Notes: a model not told the origin generated them from the letters alone. 64,000 nt of DNA from an uncultured delta proteobacterium (GCA_963847445.1 CAWJZV010000027.1:96001-160000); one strand, 5' to 3'. Shown: positions 2,489 to 12,718, numbered from the stretch's first letter. A program made the numbers and translations.

Positions 2489-4429
2489 TTAGTGGGCGCC
2501 TGCCGGCTGCTCGCGTCCCAGCGGATCGCCGGTGGTCGCTTGGCCGCTCTTCGGGTAGCGCACACTGGCGACCAGTTCTTGGACTTCTTTGGGCGGCGCT
2601 GCGGTCATGAGCGAGACGATCCAGATGACCAGGAAGCCCACCGGTAATCCGAAGACCGCCGAGGCGATGGTCTGGGTGCCGAACCAAGATACGTCCGTAG
2701 AAGCGGCTGCCGATCATGTAATAGGCGGTGACAGCCAGACCAGCGATCATGCCCCAACAGGCGCCGGCGCGTTGGCGCGCTTCCACCAGATGCCCATGAC
2801 CAGTGCCGGGAAAAACGACGCCGCCGCGAGGCTGAACGCCCAGGCGACTAATTCGACGATGATCGCAACTCGGAAGGTCGCAACCTAGGCGGCGATTAGA
2901 GCGGTAACGACCAGCAGGATCTTCGTGATCGTTAGTCGCTTGGTCAGCGAGCCTTGCGGATCGATCACGTTGTAATACAAGTCATGTGAGAAATCGCGTT
3001 GGCGATGGTCAGCAACAAACCGTCAGCGGTGGAAAGCGCTGCCGCCAGACCGCCGGCCATGACCAGACCGGTGATGACGAACGGTAGTCCGGCGACCTCA
3101 GGCATCGATAAAACGACGAAATCGGTCGACTTGACCACGAAGTCCGCCCACTGGACGATGCCGTCGCCGTTCTTGTCGACGACTTCGAAGAGCCCGGCCG
3201 GTTGCCAGAGCGTGATCCAGCGCGGCAATTCGGCGATTTTGGTGCCGACCAATTTGACGTAGATCGTGAAACGGGCGAAGGCCGCATAGGCCGGCGCGGT
3301 AAAGTAAAGCAAGAAAGATAAAAAACAGCGACCATGCCACTGAGACGCGCGCTTGGCGAACCGACGGCGTCGTGTAGTAGCGCGTCAGAATATGCGGCAA
3401 TCCCGCGGTGCCGACCATCAAGCAAAAGGTCAGCGCGAGGAAAGTTCCACATGCCGACGCCGCTTGGCACGGTCAAGTATCGGCCAATTGTCGCGTCGTC
3501 GCTCGCTGCCGGGCGCGGTGGCCTGCTGGGTGGCGGTTTTCGCCGCCGCCTTAAGTTTGTCGGTTTCCGCGTCGGTGAGATTGCCCATCTTTGATCTTTG
3601 CATTGGCCTCGTCGGCGTCCTTCTTCCAAAGAGCGCGCGCGTTTCCTTTTCCTTCGCATCACGCGTGATCTCGATCGCCTTACTATTGTTGATTTGCAGA
3701 TAGCCGTCCGTAAATCAATTCAGGAATCGGAATCGAGAAAAGCTGATACGAAAGATACACCACGGGCACCAGATACGAAACGATCAAGATGATGTACTGA
3801 GCAACCTGTGTCCAGGTGACCGACTTCATGCCGCCGAGCACGGAGCAGAACAGCACGCCAATCAGACCGACAAAGACGCCGATTGGAAAAATCCAAGCCG
3901 ATGAAGCGCGAGACGATCAAGCCGACACCGGTCACCTGGGCGATCAAGATACGTAAAAGAGCAGGCGATGGCGGCGACGACGCCGATGATGCGCGCAAGG
4001 TTGCCACCGTAGCGGGCGCCAAGGAAGTCGGGAATCGTGTAGGCGCCGAATTGACGAAGGTAGGGACCTAGGAAGACGGCGAGCAAAAGATAGCCGCCGG
4101 TCCAACCCATCACGTATGCAAGACCGGCGAATCCTTGGGCGGAAAGCGCGCCGGCCATCGATATGAAACGAAGCGGCCGACATCCAGTCCGAGCCCGTGG
4201 CCATGCCGTTATACACCGCCGGCACGCCGCGGCCGGCGACATAGTATTGATCCGGGTTCGACGTGCGCGTGATGATGCCGATGACGATGTAGATGCCCAG
4301 CGACAGGCCCATGAATATCCAGCCGATCCATTGCGGCGACAGGCCGAGAAATTGCTCTGCGAGGCCGATCAAAATCGTGACGCCGAGAAAACAGACGGTG
4401 TACAGTCCGAAGATTTTTCCTAGACTCAT
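2489..4429 (-). CDS. Sodium:solute symporter, VC_2705/ActP-like (multiple frameshifts)
   Basis: YYVAGRGVPAVYNGMATGSDWMSAASF, GWTGGY, YTIPDFLGARYGG, MVGTAGLPHILTRYYTTPSV and GGLAAALSTADGLLL spread over several frames; stop TAA at 2489. Confidence 0.9.
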
Positions 4430-4432
4430 GGC

Positions 4433-4708
4433 TCAGCCCTCCTCTCGGATGCCGTATTTGAGATCCAGCTTGTTCATCAGGTAGGCGTACACGGCGATCT
4501 CGATGACGAAGATCGCCAAAGAGCCCTGCGCGGCCATGTAGTAGCCGAGGGGAAATCCGAGAAAGGAAAATTGATTGAGGCTGGCGGCCCAAAGACCCGA
4601 GATCAGGTAAGTGACGACGAACCAAACGATCAGCAGGATGGTTGTCAGTCTTACGTTGTAACGCCAATAGGATTTCTTTTGTTCCTCCGAGAGATCAGCC
4701 ATACGCAC
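4433..4708 (-). CDS. DUF4212 small subunit of solute:sodium symporter
   Basis: YWRYNVRL...GFPLGYYMAAQGS...MNKLD pattern; immediately upstream of the symporter. Confidence 0.9.
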   Translation of the reverse strand: MRMADLSEEQKKSYWRYNVRLTTILLIVWFVVTYLISGLWAASLNQFSFLGFPLGYYMAAQGSLAIFVIEIAVYAYLMNKLDLKYGIREEG

Positions 4709-5055
4709 CTCCTCGATGCATTTTTGAATCTGTCGCTGCGAGAGAAATCGTCGATCCTCGATGTAATTCCTTCGAGTGGAGCTCAGCGTTACTCGAAACG
4801 AGCGCTACTCGGGGCGGGTTATGTTACCGCGTCTCATGGGTGGCGCTTGTGAATCGCCACCGGACACATGAGAGCAACCGGTAACGCGGGCTTGTAACAA
4901 AGGCAGAGTTCATGTGTCAAGCGGTATTTTAGGGCGGTCAAATTTTACTTGCGCATCTCAGCCGATTTGGACTATAGACCGAGCTAGCCAGCCTGGGTGC
5001 GAGTTTGTCGGGCGAACAATTACCGCATGGTTTGCTATGCGGCGGACACTAACTG

Positions 5056-7316
5056 TTGGCGGGGACGACGCACTTGTTAAGCTTGCTTAAGGTCGCCGCC
5101 TTTGGCCTATTACTAGGGCTAATGGGAAACATCGCAAGTGTTTACGATGAGGTTCGTGAGCTTGAGGAAAATGTCGGCCTGGGGTTGCTCTTTCAATTAA
5201 GAGGCGCCACAAAAGCTCCAGACGACGCGGTCGTCGTCGCTATCGACCGCGAATCTTCTGAACGCCTCAAGCTCCCGAATAATCCTGATCGCTGGCCGCG
5301 CTCCCTGCATGCGCGCTTGATCGAAGCACTCAACCGAGCCGGCGCCCGCGTGATAGTTTTCGATCTCTATTTTGCCGAGTCCAGGTCGCCAGAGGAGGAC
5401 GTGGCGCTCGCCGAACGCGATAAAGAAGGCGGGAAATGTTGTGCTCGCCGAACAACTGAGGTCGAAAGAAGTTACTTCAGCCGTCGATGCTACAGTAGAC
5501 AACGCCGGGCATAAGATTGTCGAAGCATTAAAACCGATCGAATCGTTCTCGCAATCCGCCTTCGCCACAGCGCCGTTCGTGTTGCCGCGCATGCCGGTGC
5601 GGGTGAGCCAGTATTGGACTTTTCAAACCGATGCGGGAGATACACCGACGTTCCCGGTTCTGGCGCTGCAGCTCTATACGCTCCAAGCCTATCCAGATTT
5701 CCGAGCATTGATGGAAAAGGCGAACCCGAAACACGCAGCGCTGCTGCCGCGCGACGCAAGTTCGGCGATCGAATCGACCGGAGCGTCAAAATTCACCAGG
5801 AACTTGAGACAAGTCTTTCGCAGCGATTCTGACCTCGGCGACGCGTTGGCGCATGTCGCTGTTGGCTCCGGCAGCGATCACAGACCGGTAAGTGCGATGG
5901 TCCATCTGTACACCGGTGCGAATCGCCAATACCTAAATTTCTACGGCCCGCCCCGCTCGGTGACCACCCTGCCTTATTATCAAGCCTTGCAGCTCGGCAA
6001 CGATGGCGCCAACGGCGCGCCCATGGACCTGCGCGGAAAAGCGGTTTTCGTCGGACTATCGGAAAACCTGCTCGCCGAGAGACAAGACAGCTTCCATACG
6101 GTTTTTTCCACAACCACAGGCGTTTTTATCAGTGGCGTCGAAATCGCCGCCACGGCATTTTTGAATCTATTGACGAGCACCTCGGTCAAACCGCTCCGCC
6201 CAAGTTATCAAATCGCTACGCTTCTGCTTTGGGGCATGATCGTGGGGCTTATTTGCCGCTTGGCGCCTCCTCTCTCCGCGGCTGTAGCGGTCATTTTGTG
6301 CAGTACCGCTTATGTGTTCGCTGCCAGCTACCAGTTCCGCGCCAACGCCATATGGTTTCCGATCGTTGTGCCGTTGTTTTTCCAGGCGCCTGTCGGCTAT
6401 GTCGGCGCGCTCTTGTGGAACTTTTTCGAGATCAACAGAGAACGCAAGAGAATCACACAGGGCGCTCGGCTATTATGTGCCGGAAGAAGTTGTCACCCGG
6501 GTGGCTAGAGACATGATCGACATCCGTCGATACGGCCAAACCGTTTACGGCACATGTTTATTTGCCGATGTTGCCGGCTACACGCCGGTTTCCGAATCGA
6601 TGACGCCGCGCGACTTGAGCGAGCTGATGCACAATTATCTTGAGGCGGCATTCGAACAGATTCATAAGCAAGGCGGTCTGGTTGTCGAGCTCAAAGGCGA
6701 CTCGATCCTGGCCATTTGGAAAGGGAGCTTGGGCGAGCTGGTGTTCCGGCAAAAGGCCTGCGAAGCCGCTCTCGACATGGCCGAAGCGGTACGCCGCTTC
6801 AATCAATCCACCGACGCCGCGCTCAAACTCCCTACTCGGATTAGCCTTCATGCCGGTCCGATCTTTCTCGGCAACATCGGCGCCGGAACCCACTACGAAT
6901 ATGGCGTGACCGGCGATACGGTCACCACGGCGGCGCGATTGGACGGCTTAAATAAATACCTGGGGAGCAACATTCTGGTATCCGATGAAGTGATGCGCGA
7001 CCTCGATAAATTCCTGACTCGGCCGGTCGGAGTATTTCTCTTGAAAGGCAAGTCCCAACCGATCGTGGCTCATGAATTGATCTGCCGCGCCGGCGACTGC
7101 GCCGACTGGCAAAAAAAAGCTTGCGAGATATTTGCCGAGGCGCGGCAGGCTTTCGAGCGCCGCCTCTGGGACGAGGCCGATGAGAAATTCATGCAGTCGG
7201 ACCAATTGTTTAATGGCGATGGTGTCTCGCGGTTTTATCGTCAGCTTTGTGCCCAGTATCGCTCGAGCCCGCCACCGGAAAACTGGAACGGCACGATAGC
7301 GATGGCTGAAAAATGA
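5056..7316 (+). CDS. CHASE2-domain class III adenylate/guanylate cyclase (frameshifts near 5415 and 6460)
   Basis: CHASE2 motifs VVVAIDRES, WPRSLHARLI, IVFDLYF, SGVEIAA; three TM helices; cyclase motifs LFADVAGYT, KGDSILAIW, YGVTGDTVTTAARL, LKGKS. Start codon uncertain. Confidence 0.9.
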
Positions 7317-7344
7317 TCGCCGTCGTATTGATGTAAGAAATCGC

Positions 7345-10300
7345 ATGACTGAAAGCAGGCGAATCGTGAAAACGCGCAATCAGAAGTTGGTTGTATTTAG
7401 CTTTGCCGGATTAGCGGTATCGTTGCTAGTCACTGGCGGGTTGTCGGCCTCGATCACCTGCGATCGTTGGGTCGCCAGAATGGTTTCCACCCAAGGTCAC
7501 GTCGAGGTCAGCCGCGCCGGCCAGACGCAGTGGCAGCGGGCTACGCTCAACGACACCTACTGCGCCGGCGACCGCGTCCAGGTGGGCGAAAGAAGCCGCG
7601 CCGACATTGCGCTCGTCAACCGCCCGATCATTCGCTTGGAGCAGAACACGACGATTACTTTGGCGGGGCGTCCGGGAGGAAAGACGCTCGGTCATACAAT
7701 TGCTGCGCGGCGCGCTCTATTTCTTCAGCCGTCTATCGGGCCATCTGGAAGTGTCTACGCCGTTTGTCAACGCCGGCGTCGAAGGCACCGAAGGGCTTGG
7801 TCAAAGTCGAATCCGATAGCACTTTGATAACCATCTTCGAAGGCCAGGTCATCGCTTCGAACCCCGCCGGCAGTCTCATTCTCACGAGCGGCCAATCGGC
7901 GATCGCGCGCCAAGGCAGCGCGCCGGTTCTTGACCACCATCGTGCGGCCGCGCGACGCGGTGCAATGGGCGCTCTATTATCCGCCGGTCTTCGATTTTCG
8001 TCCTGAGACTTTTCAAGACCCAACCTGGCAGGCGGTCGCGGCAAACTCGATCGCGGCCTACAAGCAGGGCGATTTTGCCGCGGCCTTCGAAAGCATTAAA
8101 GGCGTGCCGGATACCATCGCAGACCCGAGCTTCTTCAGCTATCGCGCGGCGCTGTTGTTGGCAGTGGGGCGCAGCGACGAAGCGCGCCGAGATGTCGAGC
8201 GGGCGTTGAGTTTGCGTGCCAACGACAGCGCGGCGTTGGCGCTTCAGGCGATTATCGCCGTGGCGCAAAATGACAAAGACAAAGCGCTCGAGGCCGGGCA
8301 AAAAGCGGTTACGGCAAATCCAAAGTCGAGCGCGGCGCTGATCGCGTTGTCCTACGCGCAGCAGGCCCAGTTCGATCTCACCGGCGCGCGCGCCAGTTTG
8401 CAGCAGGCCGTCGCAGTCAATCCCAACGACGCGCTTGCCTGGGCGCGGCTGGCCGAGTTGCATATGTCCTTCGCCGACCTCGACGACGCCCTCGAAGCCG
8501 CGCAAAAAGCTGCGGCCATCGACCCGAATCTGTCCAGAACCCAGACGGTTTTAGGATTCGCTTATCTGACGCAGGTCAAGACTACCGAGTCGAAGAAGGC
8601 GTTCGAACGGGCAATCGAACTCGATCAAGGTGACCCGTTGCCGCGACTGGGTCTTGGCCTCGCGCTCATCCGAGAGGGCGATCTCGACGCCGGCCGCGGC
8701 GAACTCGATATCGCCGTGAGTCTGGATCCGGATAATTCACTGCTGCGCAGCTATCTCGGCAAAGCCTACTACGAAGAAAAGTTGGACAAGCAATCGGCGG
8801 ATCAGTACGAAATGGCAAAGACCTTGGATCCCAAAGATCCGACGCCCTATTTTTACGACGCCATCCGCAAACAGACCACCAACCGGCCGGTCGAAGCGTT
8901 GCAAGACATGCAGAAAGCTATCGAGCTCAACGATAACCGCGCGGTCTACCGTTCGCGCCTGCGAACTCGATTCCGATCTTCGCCGCTCGCAGCGCCAGCC
9001 AAGCGCGAATCTACAGCGATCTCGGCTTCCAGCAATTGGCATTGGTCGAAGGCTGGAAATCGGTCAACACCGATCCGACGAATTTCTCGGCGCATCGGTT
9101 TCTTGGCCGACTCCTATTCTATCCTGCCGCGCCACGAGATCGCCAGGGTCAGCGAACTGCTGCAATCGCAATTGCTGCAGCCACTCAACATGACGCCGAT
9201 TCAGCCGCATCTGGCGGAAAGCAATCTGTTTCTGATCAGCGCTGGCGGTCCAGCGGCTCTCTCGTTCAACGAGTTCAATCCGTTGTTTAACCGCAACGGG
9301 ATTAATTTTCAGACGACGGGTCTCGCCGGCGAGAATAACACCTACGCTGGTGAAGGCGTGCTCTCGGGAATCTATCAGAAAGCGGCCTTTAGTCTCGGTG
9401 GATTTCACTTTCAGACGGACGGCTGGCGCAAGAACGCGGATCAAAAAGATACCATCGCGAATGCGTTTTTACAGTTGGAACTCTCGCCGCAGACGAGCAT
9501 TCAAGGCTGAAGTTCGACGCAGAGAAACTACACGCGGTGATCTTCAACAGAGGTTCTTTCCTGAAGACTTCTTCCCTGGCCTGACAGATAAAATCGACAG
9601 CTATTCGACTATGCGCCTTGGCGGACGTCACTCCTTTTCGCCAGATTCGATTATTCTCGGATCATTTCATGTTTCAAGATCGTCAGCAGAGGTCAAAAAA
9701 CGACTCGCCTTCGCCGCTGTTGATTCGCGGCGACTGCCTCAAAGCGCTTTGGCTTCGAGCTTCAACATCTGTTTCGCTCGCGTTATTTTAATCTCACGAG
9801 CGGAGTTGGATACTTTGATATCGATGGAGAATTACGGGCGACGGTGAAGGATCACTTCTTCCTCCGCCTTTCTTCGTGTAGCTACCACTGATCTTAGGTA
9901 TCCAGCACTTTAACGCTTATACCTATGCGAACATCAGCCTGTTGAACAATGTCACGATCACTGCGGGGGCAGTTTTGATTACTTGAATGGAGTGAACCTG
10001 CGGATTTTTCGGATGGAAGATGTGCATCAGTTCAACCCGAAATTCGGAATTACTTGGAATCCATTACCAAGCGACGACTGTTCGCGCGGCTGATTTCGGG
10101 TCGTTGAAGAGGACGCTGATCACGGACCAGACCCTCGAGCCGACCCAGGTTGCTGGCTTCAATCAGTTCTTATGATGATCTAAACGGAACAAAAGCTTGG
10201 CGCTACGGCGCGGCTATCGATCAGAAATTTACGAAAGATCTGTTTGGAGGCGTGGAATTTTCCAAGCGGGATTAAAAATTCCACTTGATAGATACTACAG

Positions 10301-10766
10301 TCCAGCCCGGAGACGATCCACGATTTCGACGGCAAAGAGTATCTTGGTCGCACCTACTTATTCTGGACACCCCATCCATGGTTGGCGCTCAGAACGGAAT
10401 ATCAGTATGAGGGATTTAGAAATGACTCAGGGCTCGGGCGAACCGACGGAAGATAAATACTCATCGTGTTCCACTGGGCCTAAATTTTTTTCACCCTTCG
10501 GGATTAAGCGCTGTCGCTGGCAGCCACTACTACAATCAAGGCGGCAGGTTTGTTGGACCTTCGGGCAACTGTTGAGTCGGGTACGACGATTTCTGGACAG
10601 TCGATGCGGCGATCAATTACCGTCTGCCGAAGCGATATGGATTCATCACGATTGGAGCGACTAATCTTTTCGACAAAAAATTCAAGTATTTTGAGGTGGA
10701 TCGTGACAACCCGCGTATTCAGCCGGACCGGATGATTTTTTTCGAATTACCCTGGCATTGCCATAA
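7345..10766 (+). CDS. FecR-domain, TPR-repeat, TonB-dependent-receptor-like beta-barrel protein (NsrA-like); many frameshifts
   Basis: Signal peptide; FecR-like GDRVQVGERSRADI and TPFVNAGVEGTE; long TPR run (7930-8950); barrel patches QFNPKFGITWNP, QTLEPTQVAGFNQ, DFWTVDAAINYRLPKRYG...NLFDKKF readable across frames. Confidence 0.85.
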
Positions 10767-10853
10767 GACAAAACTACGCCTACGGAAAGCGAATATGCCC
10801 AGCGGGAAGCGCGATCCGGTCACTTGACTACAAGCTGCGTGCCGATGGAAGAG

Positions 10854-11096
10854 CTAACTGCAGGGCACCTGTACTTTAAAATCACCTATTACCATAAAGC
10901 ACTTTTTAGGTGATTGTGTGATTTCCGTCTCAAATAAAGTATCGACCGCTTTAAGCCCATAGGGACAAGTCTCGAAGTCCTTTCGTTCCGAAGTGGTTAA
11001 AGGGGTGACTTCGACGTCCTTGCTAATTGCTTCTACGCCGACGATTTTTTTCTCACGAATCACCAGTTTGATTTCAACATCGCCTGGTAGTCCCAT
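10854..11096 (-). CDS. 80-aa protein with C-terminal Cys-pair motif (paralog A), unknown function
   Basis: Strong SD AAAGGAGG before ATG 11096; MGLPGD...SPKKCFMVIGDFKVQVPCS; homologous to the adjacent gene. Confidence 0.85.
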   Translation of the reverse strand: MGLPGDVEIKLVIREKKIVGVEAISKDVEVTPLTTSERKDFETCPYGLKAVDTLFETEITQSPKKCFMVIGDFKVQVPCS

Positions 11097-11230
11097 AAAA
11101 AATTCCTCCTTTATTATTGAGTTACGCTGACATAACCACCAGAAGCAACCGCCTGCAAAAATCAGATAGATTCGACCGACCTCGGCACCCGGTCCCAAGG
11201 CGGATCGGCGTTGAGCGACTACGGACAGCG

Positions 11231-11504
11231 CTAACCACAAGGTACCTGTACTTTAAAACCACCGATGATCATATAGCACTTCGTGGCCGTACCAAGTGTT
11301 GCGTCAGGATCTGGTGTCTCATATATCGTCTCGAGTCGGTCTGAGACCATGTAAGCTACGTCTAAATTTTTTTTTCTCGCTGGATTCCAACTCGCTGACC
11401 TGTACATCTGCAGAATTATCTTGGTGTCTCTCCACATTGGAAATATATCCGTCTTTAAATGTGACTATGAGTTTAACGACTTGCGCTACTGCTGGGTCGA
11501 CCAT
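11231..11504 (-). CDS. About 90-aa protein with C-terminal Cys-pair motif (paralog B; one extra base near 11336)
   Basis: SD AAAGGAGG before ATG 11504; removing one base after HGLRP joins the ORFs to give ...HGLRPLETIYETPDPDATLGTATKCYMIIGGFKVQVPCG, colinear with paralog A. Confidence 0.8.
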
Positions 11505-11836
11505 TGTAAATTCCTCCTTTTTGTTACATGAACGAAATTAACGACAATCGCCTAATGATTGATCAGAACCGACAACGGAAGCATAGCCAACAAAAACCTA
11601 CGAATCCTTGACATGGCCGCGACCGGGCCTGGCTTCGATAGACCGCATCGCTGTGACTTTGAAATTCACGGCCAACTCATACTTCCGCGGACTCTAGTCA
11701 CTAGCAGTCTTTTAAGTCAAGGCCAATTTTCGTGCGTATGCTTTGCGGCGGTTGACGGTCAATCCTTACCTGGCGTAGGTTAAGGCTCGGCCAGTCGCCG
11801 CAAATTTTGCAGAGCAAAAGGAGCACGAAGCCAGCC

Positions 11837-12718
11837 ATGGACAACCGCCGCTACGACTATTCGCCGATCATTCGCCGGCCCAAGATCGAATGGCCTAATC
11901 ATGGCCGTGTCGCTTTGTGGGTGGCGCCGAATATCGAATATTTTCATTACAACATGCCGATCCGCGGCACGGGCAGCAGTCATTGGCCCGACGTGCCGGG
12001 CTATAGCTTGCGCGATTACGGCGCGCGCGTCGGCGTCTATCGGATCATGGACGTGCTCGATAAGTTCAACATCCGCGCCAGCGTGCTGTTGAACGCCGAG
12101 GTCTGCGAGAAGCATCCGCCGATCATCGAAGAGGGCAATAAGCGCAACTGGGAATGGCTTGGCCACGGCCTGACCAACAGCGTCTCGATGCTCGACTATG
12201 CGCCGGAAGAGGAGCGGGCGATCATTCACAACGTCAAAGAGATGATCACCAAGGCCACCGGCAAAGCGCCAAAAGGTTGGCTTGGCCCCGGCCTGGGCGA
12301 AACTCACGACACGCCGGATCATCTGGCCGCCGAGGGGTTTGAATATGTCTGCGACTGGGGCAATGACGAACAGCCGACGGCGATGCGGGTGAAGAGCGGA
12401 CGCATGGTGGTCGTGCCCTACGAGCTGGGGGTCAACGACATCCGTGTCTTTCAGCGTGAGAATCACACGCCGGAGCAGTACTTCCGGATGGTCTGCGATC
12501 ACTTCGACACGCTCTACAAAGACAGCGTCTCGGGCGGCCGGGTGTTATGCTTGCCGCTCCACCCGTTCGTCATCGGCATGCCGTTCCGGATTAAATATTT
12601 GGAAATGGCGCTGGAGTATATGTGTTCGCACGATGGCGTGTGGCGCACGACCGGATGGGAGATCGCCGAGTGGTACTACAAGAACTACTATAAGGATCCG
12701 GGGCGGTTTGAGGGATGA
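11837..12718 (+). CDS. Polysaccharide deacetylase family protein (PuuE allantoinase-like)
   Basis: RPKIEWPN.GRVALWV, RDYGARVG, WEWLGHG, GWLGPG, LHPFVIG motifs. Confidence 0.85.
   Translation: MDNRRYDYSPIIRRPKIEWPNHGRVALWVAPNIEYFHYNMPIRGTGSSHWPDVPGYSLRDYGARVGVYRIMDVLDKFNIRASVLLNAEVCEKHPPIIEEGNKRNWEWLGHGLTNSVSMLDYAPEEERAIIHNVKEMITKATGKAPKGWLGPGLGETHDTPDHLAAEGFEYVCDWGNDEQPTAMRVKSGRMVVVPYELGVNDIRVFQRENHTPEQYFRMVCDHFDTLYKDSVSGGRVLCLPLHPFVIGMPFRIKYLEMALEYMCSHDGVWRTTGWEIAEWYYKNYYKDPGRFEG

Follow-up and report, generated by a model that had tools for sequence, protein, structure and literature searches.

In Sinorhizobium meliloti, NsrA and CyaK are described, in the available text of PMC7529298 and PMC13001267, as the outer- and inner-membrane parts of a protein-signal perception pathway that raises the level of cyclic AMP (cAMP). 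The signal is uL2, a cytosolic ribosomal protein that also acts when it comes from extracts of bacteria or yeast; uL2 is basic and is thought to meet acidic loops of the barrel, and the physiological meaning of this signal is debated (PMC7529298, same portions). In the Campylobacterota, a CHASE2 cyclase is found clustered with a phosphodiesterase, a FecR protein of the outer membrane and a TPR protein (available text of PMC9239204), while in the BiofilmReg operon of Burkholderia a LysM/FecR protein gene stands beside the gene of a CHASE2 histidine kinase (available text of PMC5192318). The FecR domain is itself the subject of a description (PMC5498481, seen in part), and the factors that are recognised by CHASE2 were, according to the accessible part of a 2016 paper (PMC5192318), not known. 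Here, we analysed a stretch of 64,000 nucleotides from an uncultured delta proteobacterium (GCA_963847445.1, CAWJZV010000027.1:96001-160000; hereafter the window), in which a CHASE2 class III nucleotide cyclase gene is followed by a gene for a FecR-TPR protein with a putative outer-membrane beta-barrel, and in which two small genes converge upon this pair. The receptor pair is of a known kind, and the family of small proteins linked to it appears to be undescribed in the literature searched; no small cysteine protein linked to CHASE2 or FecR-barrel loci was found in that literature, the supplementary tables of which were beyond the reach of the search.

The locus comprises the following features (positions are those of the window):

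5056 to 7316, plus strand: gene of a CHASE2 class III nucleotide cyclase, with about 750 codons once two one-base insertions are passed over
7345 to 10766, plus strand: gene for a FecR-TPR outer-membrane protein with a putative beta-barrel, about 1130 codons, signal-peptide-like N-terminus
10767 to 10853: spacer between the convergent stop codons, 87 nucleotides
10854 to 11096, minus strand: small gene B, an intact open reading frame (ORF) of 80 residues with an isoelectric point (pI) of 5.1, ending KCFMVIGDFKVQVPCS, with AGGAGG at 11105-11110
11231 to 11504, minus strand: small gene A, a paralogue of gene B, 90 codons if one extra base is skipped, ending KCYMIIGGFKVQVPCG

As references for a frameshift-aware dynamic-programming alignment to the window, we used the intact orthologues (a cyclase of 755 residues and a barrel protein of 1134 residues) of locus L004; here and below, L-numbers denote the loci, P-numbers the proteins and G-numbers the genomes compared, and G000 is the source genome of the window. 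The cyclase stop and the barrel start are separated by 28 nucleotides (7317-7344), and the barrel alignment ends at 10763, is followed by the stop codon at 10764-10766, and leaves 87 nucleotides to the stop of gene B at 10854. A preliminary description of this DNA had given the same two distances and the same convergent arrangement, which the alignment confirms. Its order, orientation and domains were likewise borne out, although the two larger genes are not single open frames in the window; of the two paralogous genes of 80-90 residues with strong Shine-Dalgarno sites that it reported, both are seen, but gene A requires a one-base correction. The strong Shine-Dalgarno site of gene A, AAAGGAGGAA, is located at 11511-11520, and both small genes end in a C-terminal C-x4-G-x7-C motif.

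Pfam searches with the pieces of the cyclase gene (5056-7316) identified CHASE2 (E values of 3.8e-15 and 6.4e-10) and Guanylate_cyc (9.5e-16), and the cyclase domain matched the CyaB and Rv1625c-type class III cyclases of the PDB at 9e-17 and 1.6e-15. The orthologue has one hydrophobic stretch ahead of CHASE2 (7-32) and about three behind it (384-459), so that Pfam and hydropathy together predict that CHASE2 is periplasmic and flanked by membrane helices and that the protein also has a class III cyclase domain. For the second gene, the pieces at 7930-9510 matched many TPR families, and the piece at 7351-7668 matched residues 8-109 of the intact orthologue of 1134 residues at 57.5% identity. 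The FecR domain named in the preliminary description is present in this orthologue (PF04773, 4.6e-12, along with many TPR families), but the window's own pieces gave no Pfam FecR match. More than 4000 relatives of the barrel protein were found, many with weak precomputed matches to TonB_dep_Rec (PF00593), from which we infer a C-terminal beta-barrel; a TonB-dependent receptor plug domain was seen neither in the Pfam matches of the orthologue nor in the precomputed lists of 120 relatives, and the barrel protein had no sequence match in the PDB. The cyclase gene lies directly upstream of the barrel gene in all 14 of the longer loci examined. G000 contains four CHASE2 loci. A second pair of CHASE2 cyclase and FecR-TPR-barrel genes is found on its contig C41 (16500-27500; L105, L018), followed on the same strand by a gene for a cysteine-rich protein of 244 residues that begins like a signal peptide and lacks a Pfam match.

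Patterns specific to the type B gene, scanned over one genome collection and one metagenome collection, yielded 10 loci, and in nine of these the convergent 3' end of a barrel gene is found about 90-100 nucleotides after the last small gene; the tenth, L009, has only 104 nucleotides left. The locus of G1025, an assembly of seven contigs, is intact, with the cyclase at 3788-6037, the barrel at 6067-9468 and then two convergent small genes, one of which has only 44% identity to the type B gene of L004. Whether homologues of the small genes lie mostly away from barrel loci had been named beforehand as a check; this is not so, as every homologue with enough context (in nine of the 10 loci and in G1025) is located at a barrel 3' end. 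Additionally, a metagenome-assembled genome of the Binatia carries a small gene and a barrel gene with consecutive accession numbers on one contig of 4931 bp, and the equal size of the longest contigs suggests that several other small proteins share a contig with a barrel or cyclase relative. Beyond the small genes, the flanks fall into three unrelated contexts: that of the window and L007, that of L004 and L006, and that of L008 and L011.

Profiles were built for two groups of small proteins, A3 and A7. Of 351 genomes from the class, three have members found with the A3 profile, and 400 others from the phylum sample have none; within the family, all seven matches, in three of 90 genomes, lie at barrel loci. 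The 12 matches of the A7 profile, in 10 of the 90 family genomes, are also all at barrel loci, 11 of them being the profile's own training sequences, which match by construction. Among the six-frame ORFs of the whole G000 genome, the window locus was the only one with small-protein matches.

We also surveyed the barrel genes themselves. Barrel matches in 27 of the 90 family genomes gave 30 loci, 25 of which are informative; the 27 include the unpublished genome G1172, the locus of which (L066) is uninformative and serves only as a row of the barrel tree. A convergent ORF of 60-140 residues, ending C-x(3-8)-[GN]-x(3-9)-C-x(0-3) and no more than 1 kb from the barrel, follows the barrel gene in 10 of the 25 informative loci, compared with 275 of 27,292 ORFs of the same size in the G000 genome (1.0%) and 11 of 410 other ORFs in the loci, a contrast that is overstated to an unknown degree because the motif was widened after the sequences had been seen. 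The enrichment of a C-terminal motif that the preliminary description proposed as a check is found, with this reservation about a motif adjusted post hoc. The A7 profile added the member of L054 at 9.3e-10, which the motif count had missed because its ORF call is too long, and L070 has a member that lacks the last cysteine. Small genes are present in 11 of the 25 informative family loci, or in 12 of 26 with the window. The cyclase, barrel and small genes are co-inherited in at least 12 genomes, and we consider the genetic link between the small genes and the receptor pair well supported.

The proteins of groups A3 and A7 have 73-100 residues, an N-terminal strand-turn-strand and a C-terminal C-x(4-6)-G/N-x(5-8)-C-x(0-3), and are encoded by genes that adjoin the barrel 3' end. 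The A3 profile scores gene B at 1.7e-36 and the two pieces of gene A at 1.2e-11 and 2.3e-09. Nineteen relatives of gene B were found in metagenomes at 50-90% identity (20 proteins including its own, E <= 0.01), and an exhaustive HMMER search of 1.84 billion representatives returned 11 clusters at 50% identity (E <= 0.001). Nine orthologues gave a median ratio of nonsynonymous to synonymous substitution rates (dN/dS) of 0.23 at a dS of 0.58 (32 of 36 pairs usable); the small genes are real coding genes under purifying selection. G47, C66, V77, P78 and C79 are invariant in all 37 A3 rows. The small proteins diverge fast: over seven intact loci (21 pairs), barrel proteins share a median pairwise identity of 67% and cyclases one of 57%, whereas the median for the small protein nearest the barrel gene is 25%. 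The paralogues are divergent, stand in tandem and number one to three per locus. In L009 (1056-1140) and L010 (163-247), the spacer ahead of the last small gene holds a remnant of a further small-gene 3' end, which would read ...VIIGGYKVQVPC and then a stop, which suggests duplication and decay in the arrays. The true start is set by the Shine-Dalgarno site, and the longer ORF calls only translate this site.

The small proteins are mostly acidic (pI below 7 in 44 of 48) and had no match in Pfam, NCBIfam or the PDB, and gene B also had no usable match in the ESM Atlas. For the relative P0275, a low-confidence ESM Atlas model (predicted local distance difference test score, pLDDT, of 0.55) had a weak likeness to the C-terminal domain of RNase J, which we took as no finding. 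A precursor with a double-glycine leader, or of a ribosomally synthesised and post-translationally modified peptide, was rejected: conservation is confined to the C-terminal hairpin and variation to what precedes it, the GG is not invariant (GD in gene B; GK, GR, AG or NG in others), the cassette holds no modifying enzyme or exporter, and the flanks consist of unrelated genes that differ between loci. In viral contigs, 26 pattern matches contained no relatives. Co-folding of barrel residues 216-1134 with a small protein of 80 residues, each entered as an alignment, returned a score of 0.00 and 'no answer', which is no evidence either way.

The sister group A7 consists of 11 proteins of 73-99 residues with strong Shine-Dalgarno sites, encoded at the same place and on the same strand after the barrel. 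Their N-termini are of the kind KILISVDTG..V or LLVITVEIDTGKVVSV and their C-termini of the kind GCVYWIGGRPVKVC, with C63 invariant and C75 nearly so. Comparison of the A3 and A7 profiles by hhalign gave an E value of 0.0016 and a probability of 16%, with 65 collinear columns that run from the first strand through to the hairpin of the cysteines, and the A3 profile reaches one A7 member at an E value of 0.003; a joint A3 and A7 profile reached no further than the separate profiles. Profile searches split the family of small proteins into groups that are joined mainly by position, and the better argument for treating A3 and A7 as one family is descent at one position, as seen in the tree of 30 barrel domains. 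In this tree, a clade with support of 98/96 contains eight rows, seven of them with small genes, and the two A3-bearing loci are nested among the A7-bearing ones. Outside the family, similar small ORFs are found downstream of the barrel gene in the same orientation, at distances of -4 to +129 nucleotides, as in an operon; the small ORF of L026 has an E value of 5.9e-4 against 144,046 ORFs (2e-17 after one iteration) and that of L021 scores 0.11, L021, L022, L025, L033 and L035 having been judged by eye only.

In nine informative loci that have no small genes, a same-strand gene of 236-307 residues lies no more than 300 nucleotides after the barrel, one of the nine being an integrase (L063:3396-4319, a tyrosine recombinase of the phage integrase family directly after the barrel). 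Six of the remaining eight were inspected (L018, L064, L067, L075, L079, L080), and all start with a signal-peptide-like segment and most are cysteine-rich. Such same-strand genes, of 236-278 residues, follow the barrel also in L062, L064, L067, L075, L079, L080 and L081. No Pfam match was found among those same-strand proteins that were scanned, and a stretch of 117 residues is 29% identical between two of them. In G000, G1101, G1169 and G1149, one locus of each type is found within the same genome. From the small genes at some loci and the signal-peptide-like, cysteine-rich neighbours at others, it seems that the post-barrel position is usually taken by a fast-evolving, cysteine-bearing protein, one form of which is visibly exported. 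Two further loci have short cysteine-rich ORFs behind the barrel that fall outside both groups of small proteins: one of 77 residues with a hydrophobic N-terminal segment (L058:1243-1476) and one of 128 residues with a lipoprotein-like start (L069:3249-3635). In another family of the phylum, a gene resembling class II cAMP phosphodiesterases, of the metallo-beta-lactamase fold, follows the barrel (L020:3432-4223; PF02112, 1.1e-12), which fits cAMP as the product of such systems.

The stretches around the small genes were also searched. The spacer at 10767-10853 has one weak terminator-like hairpin on the minus strand (10777-10791), and since 1.7 such sites are expected in shuffles, this is not evidence in itself; there is no Rfam match over 4700-12000. 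The non-coding stretch between the paralogues (11094-11236, aligned with related loci as A4) is conserved and has GTGTGAC about 15 nucleotides ahead of the Shine-Dalgarno site; the stretch may contain a promoter or operator. Alignment A4 gave no consensus RNA structure for this spacer, which precedes gene B. No cyclic nucleotide-binding domain was found within the window, and there are 13 matches in the rest of the genome. The G+C content of the barrel domain and small genes is 4-12 points below that of the FecR-TPR half of the same gene (9081-11504 of the window, L004, L052, L094, L099), and at 0.45-0.53, compared with 0.52-0.57 overall, it is low in all five loci, so that the genes themselves, and not this assembly, account for it.

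As the two larger genes and gene A are interrupted in the window, we analysed their frames. The cyclase gene requires two one-base corrections (at about 5411-5416 and 6455-6458), has no in-frame stops, and is identical to L004 in 431 of 744 aligned codons. The barrel gene has 17 frame events (14 one-base insertions, one two-base insertion and two one-base deletions), two in-frame stops (10273 and 10573), and 827 of 1128 aligned codons identical to L004. In gene A, a single surplus base is found at about 11336; the two pieces of the gene abut without loss on P0027, a relative of 90 residues. Insertions account for 18 of the 20 frame events over the three genes. We compared contigs from four public sequencing runs over 5000-11600. 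In contigs of three other studies (runs X1, X6 and X8), one base is absent at 5411/5413, 6457/6458, 7670, 7793 and 7930/7933, the first five frame events, and in contigs of runs X2 and X8 one base is absent at each of the next three (8961, 8978/8979 and 9097), so that the extra base is missing at all eight sites reached by near-identical contigs of other studies. The contigs give almost no cover of 9420-11600, the region that holds 11 events of the barrel domain, both stops and the event in gene A, and any single run contained at most 27% of the sampled words. Genes for class I aminoacyl-tRNA synthetases are also interrupted in G000: one has five internal stops, and another match is spread over open frames of 740, 243 and 402 residues. 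Barrel genes are split likewise in other few-contig genomes of the family. Single-base insertions are abundant in the window (e.g., 2965-4429, 628-2041 and 5056-10766) and in G000, and gene calls on this genome are fragmented as a result; the sodium:solute symporter gene after DUF4212 (4433-4708) and a CBS-DUF294 gene (628-2041) are each split over frames. The bases missing from other studies' contigs and the broken tRNA synthetase genes indicate that the frame breaks are probably assembly errors and not gene decay, and we regard it as likely, or very likely, that the locus is functional in the organism.

How the small proteins might act can be set out as a sequence of steps. The outer-membrane protein would combine a periplasmic FecR domain and a TPR array with a TonB-receptor-like barrel, and the inner-membrane CHASE2 class III cyclase would make cAMP or cyclic GMP (cGMP). 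One to three convergent genes encode acidic proteins of 73-100 residues, each with a strand-turn-strand start and a putative hairpin bracketed by two invariant cysteines, and these would be the cognate protein partner of the receptor. Released to the surface or the periplasm by lysis of kin cells or by another non-Sec route, they would acquire by oxidation a disulfide that closes the hairpin, and the barrel protein would bind them in this form; through FecR/TPR, the binding event would then be signalled to CHASE2 and the cyclase switched. Arrays of paralogues and fast divergence would give rise to lineage-specific signal-receptor pairs. Cysteines that stay invariant while the rest of the sequence drifts freely are typical of a disulfide scaffold, and such a scaffold, together with the secreted cysteine-rich neighbour at alternative loci, would place the small proteins in the periplasm or outside the cell. 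The S. meliloti precedent, in which a cytosolic protein, uL2, is released from cells, we count by analogy in favour of the same reading. We tentatively prefer to see the small proteins as a self-made signal that leaves the cell without a Sec signal, becomes oxidised there, and is sensed by the barrel and relayed via FecR/TPR to the CHASE2 cyclase, a reading that we hold to be quite possible without calling it probable; a ligand role as such is plausible but unproven. It is more doubtful, though possible, that the signal passes from cell to cell (as a kin, quorum or kin-lysis alarm protein) and is read by neighbours through the barrel, FecR/TPR and CHASE2, with cAMP or cGMP as output.

Several observations weigh against a self-made, sensed signal. 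Inspection and a crude hydropathy window, used in place of a dedicated predictor, detected no signal peptide in any of the 48 small proteins, the N-termini of which are polar (the median of the largest 12-residue hydropathy window within the first 40 residues is 1.03). The cassette, over the loci compared, contains no exporter, protease or modifying enzyme, and its flanks vary. Convergent genes are not co-transcribed. The disulfide hairpin is a prediction from the sequence pattern alone, the profile link between A3 and A7 is weak, and the final A7-based profile does not find the genes of the window. The widening of the counting motif has been mentioned. The small proteins are, for the most part, acidic, as opposed to the basic uL2. 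Furthermore, small genes are absent from 14 of the 25 informative loci, from the second cyclase-barrel pair of G000 and from the nsrA-cyaK locus of S. meliloti, which makes the small proteins a frequent accessory and not an obligatory part; the preliminary description had regarded receptor loci without such ORFs as evidence against its proposal, and this is what those 14 loci, in contrast to the other 11, provide. On balance, the comparative check that it had set speaks mostly for its proposal, which is partly supported.

Of the other explanations, one would keep the small proteins in the cytoplasm, as regulators of the cyclase domain or as receptors or effectors of the cyclic nucleotide, in a role like that of FecI and with the cysteines serving as a redox switch or an inter-chain metal site. 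The lack of signal peptides and of an exporter would then be expected, the cyclase domain is the only cytoplasmic part of the cassette, and the operon-like same-strand small ORFs in other families (that of L026 by its E value, the rest by eye) point in this direction. We nevertheless consider it rather unlikely: a protein that partners a conserved catalytic domain would not usually fall to 25% identity where the cyclase keeps 57%, tandem divergent paralogues are hard to fit in, a zinc site normally has more than two cysteines, and the protein encoded at this position in alternative loci seems to be secreted; to our knowledge, the cyclic nucleotide-binding domains described so far are all larger than 73-100 residues. 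The barrel might instead be an exporter or holder, with the small proteins as its cargo or subunits (a plug, for example) and the cyclase reporting on loading or export. Such a role can be likened to that of Oar, the TonB-dependent transporter needed for the secretion of PopC, a protein without signal peptide, in Myxococcus. The barrel is TonB-receptor-like (by the weak PF00593 matches of relatives) with no plug family listed, and the small genes lie tight against the end of the barrel gene, both of which would suit an exporter. The secretion of the protease PopC requires a TonB-dependent transporter (available text of PMC6434023). Against this, an exporter of this kind offers no inner-membrane route, many barrel loci have no small gene, and the corresponding S. 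meliloti pair is described as a sensor in the available text on that system, so that we consider the proposal improbable.

Decidedly improbable, in our view, is that there is no functional link at all and that the barrel 3' end is merely a tolerated landing site for small, fast-evolving, perhaps bacteriocin-like or selfish genes. The content of the post-barrel position does vary (small genes, a secreted cysteine-rich gene, the L063 integrase or nothing), and labels of content change 12 times over the barrel tree, a patchy pattern; however, members were found nowhere else in the 90 family genomes, their position and orientation are kept across 10 genera, they are under purifying selection, and the three genes stay together while the flanks vary. 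Least probable, we think, is that the cassette is dead in this organism and that the 20 frame breaks and two stops are the marks of a decaying pseudogene array. Breaks do reach a density of about one per 115 nucleotides in 9500-10766, where other runs give no cover, and G000 has a second, open copy of the barrel domain on contig C41, but the excess of insertions, the extra base missing at every covered site, the equally split tRNA synthetase genes and the barrels of other few-contig genomes, and the intact gene B all argue for a living locus.

CHASE2 is a widespread sensor domain, and a candidate partner gene that changes fast along with the receptor and lies beside it in many genomes would make the question of its ligand testable with defined proteins. 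If the cell-to-cell signal were real, the small proteins would be the first genetically encoded ligand family for CHASE2; a role inside the cell would instead make them a novel kind of cyclase partner or of cyclic-nucleotide effector. On either reading, a known signalling module gains an unnamed protein family whose genomic signature is clear.

Among known systems, colicins, which use TonB-dependent receptors, and the AcrA 'necrosignal', which acts on TolC, are examples of proteins without signal peptides that act on barrels after their release. The likeness of the small proteins to these is an analogy only, as there is no sequence relation, both are much larger, and this locus has no lysis gene. 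The Burkholderia BiofilmReg operon differs from the locus described here in its kinase output and, in the available text (PMC5192318), has neither a barrel nor a small cysteine protein. In the Campylobacterota cluster, FecR and TPR are separate proteins, a phosphodiesterase is included, and the portions of the text seen (PMC9239204) have no small protein. With FecA-FecR-FecI, the locus shares an outer-membrane barrel, a periplasmic FecR contact and an inner-membrane transducer, but here FecR and the barrel form one fused protein, a cyclase takes the place of the anti-sigma factor as transducer, and there is no plug or sigma factor.

The comparison with NsrA-CyaK is supported by genome data: on pSymB of S. 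meliloti, the gene for a 'FecR domain-containing protein' (NsrA) is directly followed by cyaK, an adjacency that the preliminary description had pointed out together with the role of the two as a signal-perception pair, as described in the accessible portions of PMC7529298 and PMC13001267. The window-type cyclase has 27% identity to CyaK (E value of 6e-20, over 53% of the query), and a tblastn search with only the barrel domain, in a plasmid collection that includes pSymB, had no match at 1e-10. S. meliloti differs in having nsrA ahead of cyaK, the reverse of the order seen here, in the absence of a small cysteine-hairpin gene within 7 kb, and in a signal that is a foreign or general basic protein, uL2, and not a product of the locus. 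What the window has in common with the NsrA-CyaK(-CyaD1/D2) system is the core of the receptor: a CHASE2 class III cyclase encoded next to a FecR outer-membrane protein of about 1200 residues with a C-terminal barrel.

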